Source of the DNA: Octopus vulgaris | Taxonomy: Eukaryota | Assembly: GCA_951406725.2 (NCBI GenBank) | Contig: OX597827.1 | Location: 43,276,001 to 43,340,000, forward strand | Direction: 5' to 3' | Length of the DNA: 64,000 nucleotides | Shown: positions 20,976 to 58,330 of the stretch, piece by piece | How positions within the stretch are numbered: the stretch's first letter is position 1 | Layout of the letters: each line of letters opens with the position of its first letter | Translations under genes and position numbers: made by a program | Notes under the pieces: generated by a model | What the model was told of the DNA's origin: nothing | Database searches by the model: none | The model's input: only the letters and a program-made list of their open reading frames with translations

Positions 20976-22187
20976 TTAGGTAGTCCGGAAAATTCTGAGC
21001 GTTTTTAAGCTAACACTCCTGAAACGTAACACAGTTAAAAATTTTATGTTGCTTGAAGTGGTAGTACATGTTTTCTTTGTTTCTGACTAAAAATAGATTT
21101 ATCTTTCATTCCGGTTACCCTTTATTGACATTTGTAATGGATAACCAAAAATTACATATTCGTGCTGTAATGCTTTTCTTTTTTAATAAAGGAGAAAATG
21201 CTGCAAAGTTCATGGTGATGCTGCTGCAGGGGAATCAACCGTTCGAAGATGGTTTGCAAAATTTATATCTGGAGTTTAGCTTGGAAGAGGACAATCGCAG
21301 TGGAAGACCTTCAAAATTGGATGAAAATGTTTTACAGGCAAAACTCAAATATCACTACAGAACTTGCTTAGGAATTTGGAAGTTTCTAAAAGTACGGCAC
21401 ATGAACGCCTAGTGAAGCCAGGATATATTTCTCGCAATAATGTATGGGTCCCTCAGAAACTCTCAGAAAATAATTGCTTGGATCGGTATTCCGTTTGTGA
21501 CATGCTTTTGAAACGGAAAGAAAATATGCTTTTTTTTAAACAACTTGTGACTGGAGACGAAAAATGGATTGTGTACGAAAATGTAGTGCAAAAAAGATCC
21601 TGGAGTTTCCGAAAAATAGTAACGAAAGACGAATATCCATGCGAAAAAAGCTATGCTTTGTGTTTGGTGGGATCATAAAGGCATTATTTATTATGAGCTT
21701 CTCCACAAAACCAGACTATTAACTCTGATATGTACTGTCGTCAGCTGGCTAATTTGAAGCAAAAAAATCAAAGAATTGAGGCCAGAGATTACTAACAGGA
21801 AAAGGGTAGTGTTCCAGCAAGACAATACCCGACCACACGTGTCTTTGGCTACCCGAGCAAAGTTACATGAACTTGGCTGGGATCTCTTACCCCATCCACC
21901 ATATTCTCCTGATATTGCGCTATCCAGCTACCACTTGCTTTTGTCTCTACATAATTCATTGTAAGGAAAAACATTTAACTATTTAGATGGAATCAAAATG
22001 CATCTAGATAAATGTTTCTCTTCAAAATCAGTCAAATTTTATGCTGATGGAATATTTCTATGGCATGATAGATGTGCAAAGGTCATTAATAATAATGGAA
22101 ATTATTTCATTGAATAAAATTTATTGAAAGGTCAATTATTTATATTATCCCTTCCCGCATATTACAAAAAAAAAAAACGGTCAGAAC
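20976..22187 (+). mobile_element. Mariner transposon with decayed transposase (about 21137-22117)
   Basis: MDNQKLHIRAVMLFFF, RSGRPS, WVPQKL, LVTGDEKWIVY, QQDNTRPH, LPHPPYSPDIA; frameshifted. Left TIR TTAGGTAGTCCGGAAAATTCTGAGCGTTTT and partial right TIR AAAAACGGTCAGAAC. Confidence 0.95.
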
Positions 22188-26793: not shown

Positions 26794-27028
26794 AAGGCGG
26801 CGAGCTGGCAGAATCGGTAGCACGCCGGGCGAAATGCGTAGCCGTATTTCGTCTGCCGTTACGTTCTGAGTTCAAATTCCGCCGAGGTCGACTTTGCCTT
26901 TCATCCTTTCGGGGTCGATAAATTAAGTACCAGTTACGCAGTGGGGTCGATGTAATCGACTTAATCCGTTTGTCTGTCCTTGTTTGTCCCCTCTGTGTTT
27001 AGCCCCTTGTGGGTAGTAAAGAAATAAG
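26794..27028 (+). mobile_element. SINE family B, full-length monomer with TSD
   Basis: Complete head, core and long tail; AGTAGC(G/A)TAAAATAG on both sides. Confidence 0.9.
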
Positions 27029-27054
27029 TAGCATAAAATAGAGAGCAAAAAGGG

Positions 27055-27790
27055 TCCATAATTGGTGAATTATCATCCTGAAAGATTGCATTTCTCCCCG
27101 GAAACAGTTCCGCAACCATTTGATCAGATAAAATTCTTAAATAGTCTTCACTGTTCAGCCATGTAAAGAAACTATTAGGCCGGCAGATTTCCAAGATATA
27201 GCCCTCACCCCAGATCATCACAGATCCTCCTACGTGTTTAACAGTTGGAAGAAGGCAGTCTGGATCAAATGCTTCTTTTGGCTGTCTTCACACATATACT
27301 CGGCTGGTGGTCGGAAATAAGGTAAAGGATGACTCGACCAAGAAAATAACATTCTGCCACTGTTGGTTTTAGTCCACTCTAAAAACTTTGCAACATTTGT
27401 TTTCGAAAGCAGTACTTTTCTGATTGCTGCCCTCCCGTGAAATCCAGCATTGTGCAGCTCCAGGCGAACAGTTTTTGTGGGAACGGTGTACTCGAGGTGG
27501 TCATTAAGCTCTGCAGTAATTTTGAGAGCTGCACTTTTGTGATCCTTTCTAATAATTTGCATTAGAGCTCGATGATCCCTATCTGAAAGTTTTGGTTTTC
27601 TTCAGGAGTCTTAGTTTTCTTCAGGAGTCTTGGTTTGACGAAGAGGTTTTTGCCTCTTTCTCAAAGGCTGTCATTACTTTCGAGACAGTACTTCTTGATA
27701 TACCAAACATTTCGGATGTTTTCGTTATGCTAGCGCCTGGCATACGAGCACCAACAATTTGACCTCTTTGAAAGTCCGATAAATCTGTCA
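27055..27790 (-). pseudogene. Tc1-family transposase, decayed and 3'-truncated
   Basis: MTDLSDFQRGQIVGAR, GISRSTVSKV, KTVRLELHNAGFHGRAAIRK, PTVKHVGGSVMIWG, IFQDDNSPI. Confidence 0.93.
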
Positions 27791-27849
27791 TTTTAATGAA
27801 TTTTAATAACATTTTTCTGCTGATTTCTGAAGAGAAACAGCAATTTTAG

Positions 27850-36380: not shown

Positions 36381-37438
36381 CTGGGTTGGCAACAATGATA
36401 CCGCCGTTTTTTTAAATTTTGGAATCTATTTTTTCGAGAATTCTACTTTTGAATAATTTTGGAACCTATTTTATTTTATTTTTTTCTAGTTAATTTTAGT
36501 TACTTTTTGTTTGTTTTCAGATCATTAAAATGGAATGTCAAGTTAAGAAAAACGAGCATTTTCGACACCTCCTTCTTTTTGCTTTTAATCAAGGTTCTAA
36601 GGCCGCAAAAGCTGCTCGCGACCGTTGTGCTGTGTATGGAGAGGGTGCCATAGCTGAAGGAAGAGCTCGTGATTGGTATGCCAAGTTCAAAAATGGAAAT
36701 TTTGACCTCAAAGACGCACCTCGTTCTGGCCGTCCAGCTGAGTTTTCGACGAAGAGCTATAAAAGCAACTTTTGCACGAAAATTCTCGTCAAGCGACAAG
36801 GGAAGTGGCAGAGGAAATGGAATGCTCCCACACTGCAATAGAGAAGCATCTTCACTCGATGGGAAAGGTTCAAAAGTATGGAGCATGGGTTCCGCGTGAT
36901 TTGAGTGACAACAACAAACATCAACGAACCACAATCTCCGCTTTGTCACCGCTCGACTCATGGACACAAGCAACGATTTCTTTACCGAATCATTACTGGC
37001 GACGAAAAACGGTGCCTGTGCATTAATATGAAGCAGCGTAAGGAATGGCTTAGCCCCGGTAATCAAGCGACACCGCGCGTGATGCAAGATCTTCATCCGC
37101 GTAAAACGATGTTGTGCGTATGGTGGGACTGGGAAGGGATTATCCATTACGAATTGCTTGAACGGAACCAAACGGTCAACGCGGAACTCTATGTTCAAAA
37201 GATGGAACGACTCAACACGGCTATTCAAAAGAAAAGACCTAATCGGCAGCCTTCATATCACCAATATGATCATGGAAGCCATTCAAATGCATGACTGAGA
37301 ATTGCTGCCACACCCGCAGTACACACTTAATTTGGCACCAACGGATTTCCACCTCTTTCGATCTCTTTCGAATGCCATGCGCGGAGTTTTAAAAAAATTA
37401 AATGAAAGAAAACGACGGAAACTTAGTTGTCAACCTAT
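36381..37438 (+). mobile_element. Mariner transposon with decayed, internally deleted transposase (from 36530)
   Basis: MECQVKKNEHFRHLLLFAF, WYAKFKNGNFDLKDAPRSGRP, WVPRDL, RIITGDEKR, MLCVWWDWEGIIHYELL, LAPTDFHLF. TIRs GGGTTGGCAAC...CCGTTTT and AAAACGACGG...GTTGTCAACC. Confidence 0.95.
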
Positions 37439-51902: not shown

Positions 51903-52029
51903 TGTGTTTCCAATCAATCTGCTGATAAAGTTACATTCGTAAAGGCACCCCATACTACAATTCCGCATTAGAAAGCTCTAATTTTAAGAGTAGTATAACT
52001 TATATTGACTTAAATCTAGACAGAACATG

Positions 52030-52670
52030 AAGACGTCGACAGAGAAAAATATTATGGCACAATCCTCCATATAGCATGGATGTGGCCACTATCATATGTA
52101 GAAGATTACTGAAACTCATAGATACTACTTACCATCACTCATATAAATATCACAAGATCTTCAACAGGAATACTGTCAAAGTTAGCTATAGTTGCCTCCC
52201 TATAAGAGGGTCACACAATAAAAATAGCAACATTGGGATCATCTCTCCAAAATCCTATAATTGTAGATCCCCGTACAGCTGTCTCTTGAACCATATCTAC
52301 CTGCAAAGAGATATAGTGTACAAGGCCATCGTTACGGATTTGAACGGAACAACAAAAATTTGCAGTGGGATGACGGGAAACGCCTTCAAATAGAGATATA
52401 CGCAGCATTTAGCTTCGTTTAGAGACTAAAGCAAAACATGCACAATAATTTTATCCAATATGGTTTTATCATTTAATGAGAGGAACTTAAAGAACTCCCC
52501 ACCTCTAAATTAGAGCATCATAACTACGGCCATCAAATACAGGATATGGGTCATCCAATGAGAGTTCTATATTACTGATAAACTAAATATAACATCAGCA
52601 ATAAACGTCTTAAATAACAGGGAGAAAACCATTTCCACCTGCATTCACAAGCAAAAATTCATATTTTGAA
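52030..52670 (+). pseudogene. Penelope-like element C-terminal linker and GIY-YIG endonuclease fragment
   Basis: RQRKILWHNPPYSMDVAT, HKIFNRNTVKVSYSCLP, NCRSPYSCLL, IVYKAIV...GMTGNAFK*RYTQHLASFR, STCIHKQKF. Confidence 0.9.
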
Positions 52671-55763: not shown

Positions 55764-55896
55764 GTATATATATATATTTGTACAGGTTGTCCTAAAAGTC
55801 CGTGATAGGTTTGAACTTTTATTAACTTCCTTAACTTTCTCTATTGATGTTCTCCTTCAGTTGCACCAAAGTCCCAAGCATCCCCACAGCAGCCAT

Positions 55897-55956
55897 ATTA
55901 AAACTCCGAGTTTCAGATATCGGGGCAGAAACCCATGCCAGCATCTCTTCAGTTAT
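55897..55956 (-). ncRNA. Type-I hammerhead-like motif, left arm of inverted pair
   Basis: Minus strand ATAA-CTGAAGA-GATGCTGG...CCGATATC-T-GAAA-CTCGGAG-TT-TTAA. Confidence 0.6.
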
Positions 55957-55979
55957 CAGAGCATTTTTTTCGATGGCTC

Positions 55980-56040
55980 GATAACTGAAGAGATGCCGGC
56001 GTGGGTTTTCGCCCCGACATCCGAAACTCGGAGTTTTATT
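55980..56040 (+). ncRNA. Type-I hammerhead-like motif, right arm of inverted pair
   Basis: Stem I ATAA/TTAT; canonical core CTGAAGA (55985-55991); stem II GATGcCGG/CCGaCATC; GAAA (56023-56026); quasi-palindromic stem III AAACTC-G-GAGTTT; GUU triplet ending at 56035. Confidence 0.7.
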
Positions 56041-56320
56041 ATGGCTACCGAATGACTGTCACATATTATATTCACAGATAAATTCCTCAGTTTACATAAT
56101 ATCGAGGTCTCTTTCATTCTTTTGTTGTCTTACCATTTCTATAAAGTTGCCTCCCGATTACCGCTATTTTTCCGTAAGGGCTAATGTCCCCTCTATGTTT
56201 AGCCCCTTGTGGGCAGTAAAGAAATATAATATAATGAAAATCGTCAGAAATCGGTTGAGGACTCCGCCCCGCAGAAGAATTCAATTTGGACGCCTACTAC
56301 ATCGATTATTCTATGAAACA

Positions 56321-56355
<35 letters not shown>

Positions 56356-56800: not shown

Positions 56801-57369
56801 AGAATATATATGTACGTTTATATCTACACACACACACAATCATATGTATGTACACCCATATGAGTCTGTGTGCGCACGAGTATGTGTGTGTACACTTGTA
56901 TACGTTTGGATACAGAATCGAGAGGAAATTTGTTTTTATGCTGATGTATAGTTTATCCACGCATCGAAAGCTGATCTTCCCTCCGTCGTTACTCCGAGTT
57001 TTCCTTTTAATGTACCGCTTCTGAATGAGACCGAGATGCGAATCACCTTACAACAACCTTCAGGAATTCGATTGTCTGTTATTAAGAAGTCAATCGTGTG
57101 CGACTGTTTAAAATAAACTTGCTCTTTTTTTAATTTTGCTGTCGACGTCTACGGAAAATGTAGGACCCTGATCCATTGATGATTCGAGAGGGTGGTCACT
57201 TTTTACATGCTGTTGTGAAATGATGCTATGATCTTTACCGAAGTGATTTTGGCACCGTCACCTGCCTTATACACTATGCAGGTATCATCTCCTTTGTAGT
57301 TAGATATTTTTGAACAGCATTTCTCTGTCGTTATTGCCACTTTGATACTACCTCTTTTAATAGTCTCTT

Positions 57370-57768
57370 CTACTCTTTTACTTGTTTCAGTCATTTGACT
57401 GCGGCCATGCTGGAGCACCGCCTTTAGTCGAGCATATCGACCCCGGGACTTATTCTTTATCGGTGTCTTTTATCGGTCTCTTTTGCCGAACCGCTATGTG
57501 ACGGGGACGTAAACACACCAGCATCGGTTGTCAGGCAATGCTAGGGGGACAAACACAAACACACAAACATATACACACACATACATATATATATATATAC
57601 ATATATACGACAGGCTTGTTTCAGTTTCCGTCTACTAAATCCACTCACAAGGCATTGGTCGGCCCGAGGCTATAGCAGAAGACACTTGCCCAAGATGCCA
57701 CGCAGTGGGACTGAACCCGGAACCATGTGGTTGGTAAGCAAGCTACTTACCACACAGCCACACCTGCG
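57370..57768 (-). mobile_element. SINE family A, full length
   Basis: Near-consensus copy. Confidence 0.9.
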
Positions 57769-57774
57769 TCTGGT

Positions 57775-58330
57775 CTGTATGAGAATATTAAATTTCTTAG
57801 CAGGGCATGTAGGCATCGTTTCATTCAGCTGTGTAGTCGGCTTCTATTTCAACAACAGATCAGGATCTTTCGATATTGTTGATTACCATCTCTTAGATTC
57901 CAGATATACTTGGACAGTGAAATTTCTTTTAATTCTGGAACCGAAGGAGTACATGTGCTGGGTGTTTCTGCACTTGAATGTGTTTCCAGTCAGCCGATAT
58001 TATTTCCTATGTCTTCTCATTATCGACGGCCGATTGTACTTTGAATGGATGCACTAGTGGCTTTCTTAGGCACATTCTATGGAGCGGGCATGATGTAGAA
58101 TCGCTGGTATAGCTTTCAGGTAATAGAAACAGTTTTACTGCTTCGTCAAAGAGAGTGAGTAGGTTTATAACCATTTTGTGAGGTATACAAAACCGAAGGA
58201 TTAGTGAGAGACCCACTTCGAATGCCTACGACACACTAGATTCCGAAAAGAAAAGAAACGTGGCAATGTAGTTTTCCACATTTCCGACTTCATTAAAAAA
58301 GTTTTAAATCGTAGAGCAGGATTTAATGGG
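57775..58330 (-). pseudogene. Penelope-like GIY-YIG endonuclease fragment
   Basis: Minus strand SCPLHRMCLRKPLV...LTGNTFKCRNTQHMYSF...SKYIWNLRD. Confidence 0.75.

Follow-up and report, generated by a model that had tools for sequence, protein, structure and literature searches.

A hairpin carrying two hammerhead motifs

The locus lies in a 64-kb window of the Octopus vulgaris genome (the whole stretch of DNA analyzed here, in whose coordinates all positions are given) and centers on two arms, 55891-55957 and 55980-56046, whose letters are complementary at 60 of 67 positions. All but one of the seven differences are transitions, which bears out the first-pass annotation of near-perfect reverse-complement arms differing mostly by transitions. 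As a 168-nt hairpin RNA, the region was predicted to fold at -113.8 kcal/mol (z = -18.2), and none of 200 shuffles was equally stable. When the whole window was scanned with a type I hammerhead descriptor, both arms matched (right arm with C3 at 55985 on the plus strand and H17 at 56035; left arm with C3 at 55952 on the minus strand and H17 at 55902), and 100 locally shuffled windows yielded no match. The hammerhead core (CUGANGA, GAAA, and UH) and its three helices are present in both arms, intact on the right and with broken pairs on the left; the two cores are 33 nt apart and the motifs point outward, as had been proposed. Predicted cuts fall after 56035 on the plus strand, the site that had been expected, and at 55902 on the minus strand.

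The hairpin and its two mirror-image hammerhead motifs are real, and the ribozymes within it are predicted from folding to be inactive or locked shut. The right motif has lost no core base and has a stem I of 5 bp (hammerhead fold of -7.9 kcal/mol), whereas the left is degraded, stem I being interrupted by an A-A mismatch and stem II by an additional mismatch (hammerhead fold of +4.2 kcal/mol), and in folding predictions the hammerhead is not the minimum-energy structure of either isolated arm. An Rfam scan of the window returned no family at gathering score and, up to E 10, no hammerhead model, the only matches being generic hairpins (miRNA, sRNA) far below the cut-offs. Separately, a weaker descriptor match was seen at ~185-236 on the minus strand, directly downstream of an RT-like ORF piece at 570-1025 on the same strand (Pfam RVT_1, E 5.7e-08).

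Extent of the element copy

The unit had been described as a 156-bp hairpin; its arms stand, and the unit itself is larger. Comparison with other copies showed that the 22-nt “loop” is the element's own terminal-repeat (pLTR) sequence upstream of the ribozyme rather than a spacer, and that the right arm extends as element sequence to ~56322 through the tail, 5′ UTR, a foreign insertion, and the ORF start. The parts of this Penelope-like element (PLE) copy are as follows.

55781..55868, no strand assigned: left flank, an unrelated repeat piece with an internal deletion, outside the element
55891..55962, minus strand: inverted 5′-truncated pLTR piece, spanning about -9 to +61 in family numbering (hammerhead C3 = 0), whose outer end falls short of the usual family ends
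55897..55957, minus strand: left type I hammerhead motif, degraded (C3 55952, H17 55902)
55960..55962, no strand assigned: approximate inversion junction, a 3-nt microhomology common to both arms, its position read from the sequence
55960..56145, plus strand: direct pLTR end with hammerhead and tail, to which the two usual family 3′ ends map at ~56080-56083 and ~56145
55980..56040, plus strand: right type I hammerhead motif (by descriptor, fold, and comparison with family copies), with stem I at 55980-84/56036-40, core at 55985-91, and stem II at 55992-56021, then one extra C, GAAA at 56023-26, palindromic stem III to 56034, and H17 at 56035
56146..56185, plus strand: element 5′ UTR beyond the tail, by comparison with family copies
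56186..56235, plus strand: later 50-nt insertion, the end of an unrelated very-high-copy repeat, with ~14 nt of the element replaced
56236..56322, plus strand: remaining 5′ UTR and first PLE ORF codons, with a decayed start codon (56286-88), stopping in a (CA)n run

The inverted part comprises element sequence alone, without flank. Its outer end, at +61, is non-standard, the usual family ends lying at about +95 or +162. There is no 3′ pLTR in the window, where the right arm continues into the ORF, and neither a (TA)n flank nor a target-site duplication of ≥6 bp was found at the window copy. Because this copy is without the usual family ends, (TA)n flank, and target duplication, we infer later erosion, and erosion after insertion is the likely cause of the non-standard outer ends.

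Assignment to the Hydra clade

The arm is a high-copy repeat, with 2225 candidate matches in a 2.8-Gb, microsatellite-rich genome, and a repeat search over 50-64 kb of the window was itself dominated by microsatellites. Sister copies connect the hammerhead to coding sequence on either side, in the order RT, endonuclease (EN), 3′ UTR, hammerhead in L062, L097, and L099, and hammerhead, tail, ORF start in L069, L085, and others. In L097, L099, and L062, a single ORF with RT plus a GIY-YIG domain at its C-terminus is linked to the pLTR, and the window holds the first codons only. L099 has about 2.8 kb between ORF start and hammerhead, and L097 has 3.0 kb.

RWK and DKT motifs occur in the translations of L081 and L099, and L097 and L099 carry a CxCx5C linker, plus CxxC and CxH motifs next to the EN's conserved E and N; a CCHH motif was not seen by eye in the EN of the decayed family copies. 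The family inserts into (TA)n, which is not visible at the eroded window copy. For the Hydra clade, section 11 of PMC8557442 lists RWK, DKT, CxCx5C, CxxC, and CxH motifs, (TA)n targets, and a length generally under 3 kb. Since sister copies link the ribozyme to an RT and GIY-YIG ORF with Hydra motifs, we read the window copy as a decayed Hydra-clade PLE insertion with an inverted 5′-truncated pLTR, in agreement with the PLE origin suggested at first pass. As placed by motifs and by-eye comparison, the family is a Hydra-clade PLE, and apparently a second one in the octopus genome, other than the published Hydra-1_Obim.

A 177-aa RT piece of the family had 87 homologues among 1051 candidates, almost all unnamed, and Pfam recognized none of four family ORF pieces and none of four full-length homologues. 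The Nematis clade, our initial guess, was dropped when the Hydra motifs matched, and a GIY-YIG ORF beside L019 (with a Pfam match) belongs to a different PLE family and was not taken as the parent.

Recurrence across the genome

A 30-nt tail word downstream of the ribozyme has 598 exact matches in the genome. Our sample took 92 of the 93 matches listed on contigs C1 and C2 (89 loci), chosen regardless of 5′ structure; outside it were L029 (no inversion), seven matches listed on C3, and 498 unlisted matches, and L104 duplicates L105. Of the 89 sampled loci, 53 had an inverted piece of the family alongside, 18 of the 89 had both arms spanning the core, and the 53 inverted loci showed 51 different junction pairs. 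Genome-wide, at least 198 loci carry exact head-to-head ribozyme 5′ halves 8-38 nt apart, and junctions visibly differ among the 50 head-to-head loci listed.

The junction seen in the window has no second occurrence in the genome. A search for further copies with the same inversion point thus finds that exact point nowhere else and the arrangement itself repeatedly, so that the choice originally offered, between a shared inversion point and a one-off rearrangement, has a third answer. The head-to-head arrangement is a recurrent mechanistic by-product with variable junctions. The earlier suggestion of a fossil of template switching next to the ribozyme is supported. Both arms are family pLTR, and inversions are common, with varying junctions.

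Short, internally deleted derivatives are also numerous (L067-L095, e.g., L075, L083, and L090), with an inverted hammerhead, 100-400 nt of ORF start, and then a hammerhead with tail; their second junction likewise lies just upstream of the ribozyme.

Decay of the two arms

Across 19 twin loci, arms differ at 8% of subfamily-diagnostic sites, compared with 49% between loci. In the window, both arms share a stem I variant that was found in two of 86 copies, their identity of 0.90 lies within the range of other twins (0.85-0.97), and CpG transitions make up four of the eight left-arm differences from the family majority. The likeness of arms within loci, the shared rare variant, an identity in the twin range, and the CpG transitions fit a single insertion event followed by neutral decay: both arms most likely stem from one insertion event and, judged from their substitutions, are decaying neutrally.

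Family copies deviate by 6.7% on average from the majority, and the core is intact in 56 of 86. Stem II pair variants in the 86 copies are one-sided and pair-preserving (U-A/U-G 40/37; G-C/G-U 53/23), with no two-sided change. In four contig runs, no listed piece bridges the junction or the left flank, an absence that proves nothing.

How the inverted copies may have been built

Family 3′ ends fall into two classes, at about +95-98 (some read to +117) and +158-165. At 48 of the 49 inverted loci with both ends classed (loci L100-L189), one arm carries the short end (about +95) and the other the long end (about +162), where random pairing of end classes would give about half, by arithmetic from the end counts. 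On the 5′ side, 32 of 92 segments end within 30 nt upstream of the core and three in the next 29 nt, and the predicted cut site is crossed by 80 of the 92. A pile-up of 5′ truncations at the cut site, as a fossil of in vivo cleavage, was considered and rejected (two of 92 ends in 49-53 vs. about 2.4 expected). PMC11167929 describes a tail defined by two internal RT start sites, cutting and extension of both DNA strands, and a template that is mainly uncleaved RNA; the lack of a cut-site peak and the uncleaved-template pattern in our family agree with that account.

We conclude with high confidence that the locus is a worn Hydra-clade PLE insertion in which a 5′-truncated terminal repeat lies head-to-head with a second copy, most likely from one event, with ribozymes predicted to be inactive. 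Under the mechanism that we propose, the element protein would nick the target and prime once from each DNA end, with reverse transcription beginning at internal positions of uncleaved element RNA that lie downstream of the hammerhead. Each cDNA would pass back through the ribozyme and usually stop within 30 nt upstream, likely near the 5′ end of the RNA, which was presumably initiated in the pLTR. The two cDNAs would then be joined by microhomology, and later deletions, the small insertion, and CpG decay would have eroded the window copy.

More tentatively, the stubs could be a record of PLE insertion at large, in which one dimer primes both cut ends, using the short start site on one side and the long one on the other, on uncleaved RNA that begins ~30 nt upstream of the hammerhead; we regard this wider reading as less likely than not. 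If true, short insertions would yield twin-ribozyme hairpins by default, and these would be an inherent source of dsRNA directed against the element. For head-to-head junctions, PMC3846280 favors self-priming on an antisense template over priming from both ends, and the family data do not separate the two routes.

Far less probable is a post-insertion origin, with a single pLTR copy inverted by fold-back at the DNA level and not in the course of retrotransposition. Rare variants common to both arms, microhomology at the junction, and the non-standard outer ends of the window copy would all suit such an event, but fold-back of flanking DNA would not yield the pairing of short and long element ends seen at 48 of 49 inverted family loci, and the inversion here spans element sequence only, with no flank.

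Masking and editing

Whichever strand were read through, transcription would reach the antisense arm before the ribozyme, which would be trapped in a 67-bp duplex, so that the idea of an antisense copy preceding and blocking each ribozyme is upheld as geometry by the fold energies. Because the hairpin is favored over the best ribozyme-containing fold by 82 (plus strand) and 95 (minus strand) kcal/mol, masking is predicted on both strands. From these models, it looks like a consequence of geometry, a by-product and not a selected switch.

The notion of a dedicated self-masking or bidirectional cassette is not supported: the junction is unique, the arrangement recurs with many junctions, and decay is of the neutral CpG type. 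In its strongest form, the hairpin would be a selected switch, keeping the hammerhead inactive until opened by A-to-I editing or a helicase, whereupon host RNA is cut, and we consider this very improbable. The geometry does mask the ribozyme on both strands, the right arm keeps its core bases and 5-bp stem I, and family RNA occurs on both strands in a related organism. Against this, the energy gap persists under simulated editing, remaining at 75-80 kcal/mol with every antisense-arm A read as G and at 44-60 kcal/mol with all of them non-pairing, which renders the proposed release by A-to-I editing implausible on these models. Editing would also strike the ribozyme itself, five of the 14-16 A per ribozyme arm being core bases likewise exposed. 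Moreover, the arm differences do not favor pairing (plus strand, two GU and five mismatches; minus strand, four GU and three mismatches), and about 200 or more equivalent hairpins decay alike. Pfam searches of 101 stop-to-stop ORFs in the window found transposase and RT matches only and identified no host exon; the hairpin may be intronic.

The RNA reads from the related organism (three raw runs, about 6% of each, and one contig run) came from other family copies, on both strands; their starts and ends formed no pile-up, A>G and T>C changes were not in excess over C>T and G>A, and no read was assigned to the window locus. An editing-controlled ribozyme switch would matter far more if true, and nothing at the locus supports one; a worn by-product of PLE insertion is the reading that we retain.

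Comparison with known elements

An inverted 5′-truncated copy beside the upstream pLTR, with a one-sided tail, is the textbook PLE layout (PMC8557442, Fig. 2 legend; PMC3846280), and the first-pass statement that PLE hammerheads can occur inverted is already in print (PMC4209133; PMC8557442 supplement): PMC4209133 reports pairs of minimal hammerheads in PLEs, one on each strand and separated by about 100-700 bp, and Penelope-13_HM of the Hydra clade has an inverted 5′ copy with hammerheads on both strands (PMC8557442 supplement). The family shares with the Hydra-clade PLEs of PMC8557442 a single ORF with RT and C-terminal GIY-YIG, a type I hammerhead with palindromic stem III, and a one-end tail, and its stem III is identical to those of Hydra-2_aMil and Penelope-16_HM in the supplement. 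It differs from them in a longer stem II (13 positions, two mismatches), the extra C before GAAA, and a tail of about 65 nt instead of 30-40. From Hydra-1_Obim, the octopus family in the same supplement, it differs in its hammerhead, and the protein looks by eye like a close but clearly distinct relative.

The minimal PLE hammerheads of PMC4209133 have the same short helix I, long helix II, G-C beside the core, and dimer-requiring palindromic helix III, whereas the motifs here are closer together (33 nt) and have an extra base on the 3′ side of stem II; in that report, single minimal hammerheads cleaved little or not at all and dimers only at a low level. Penelope copies of Adineta vaga (PMC3846280) likewise have a head-to-head inverted pLTR whose 5′ end is shortened, junctions with overlap or microhomology, and an optional one-sided tail, but often keep the target duplication and 3′ pLTR, while the window copy has lost both ends. 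Poseidon of Anolis (PMC11167929) resembles the family in its two internal RT starts, uncleaved RNA template, and cutting and extension of both strands; it belongs to another clade, and its ORF starts inside the hammerhead, compared with about 290 nt downstream here.

Least credible of all is a non-autonomous hairpin element (MITE-like or retrozyme-like) mobile as a 156-bp unit, since, for all the family's high copy number and the many short twin-hammerhead units, the junction is unique with no second genome copy, the outer ends are not common to other copies, no target duplication was found, and the inverted copies are tied to an ORF, in contrast to the direct tandems that define non-LTR retrozymes (10.64898/2026.07.22.740005). 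On the same comparisons we set aside both a non-LTR retrozyme, the copies being inverted and ORF-linked and not direct tandem repeats (10.64898/2026.07.22.740005), and a MITE or fold-back DNA transposon, there being no common termini across copies and no target-site duplication. A partial literature search turned up no paper on this PLE family or on an editing-gated PLE hammerhead.

Taken singly, the locus is an ordinary worn transposon stub and matters little; the family-wide statistics of ends and junctions are the part worth pursuing. From the family copies one can count, within a genome, how PLEs assemble inverted ends, with a one-sided tail, junctions crowded just upstream of the ribozyme, and no pile-up at the cut site. 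These statistics bear on how PLEs insert, a matter within reach of the in vitro PLE system already established.

Neighboring elements

Other transposon remnants lie near the hairpin and elsewhere in the window. Another Hydra-like PLE has left a decayed C-terminal piece with GIY-YIG at 57873-58090 and 57050-57370 (both minus strand), interrupted by a high-copy repeat, and a stem III-like palindrome near 56985-57005 (minus strand) may be the worn hammerhead of this second element. A third Hydra-like PLE is represented at 51941-52663 (plus strand) by a decayed thumb and endonuclease half (tblastn E 2e-33). Remnants of Tc1/mariner transposases are found at 36500-37291 (plus), 26964-27845 (minus), and 21065-21409 (plus).

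Around sister copies elsewhere in the genome, pieces of other PLE families with GIY-YIG and a Zn-finger-like linker adjoin family copies in (TA)n tracts (L064:2312-2869, plus strand; L063:647-1806, minus strand). Upstream of a further family copy, at L061:2454-5615 (plus strand), lie ORF pieces that may resemble a Helitron Rep/helicase.
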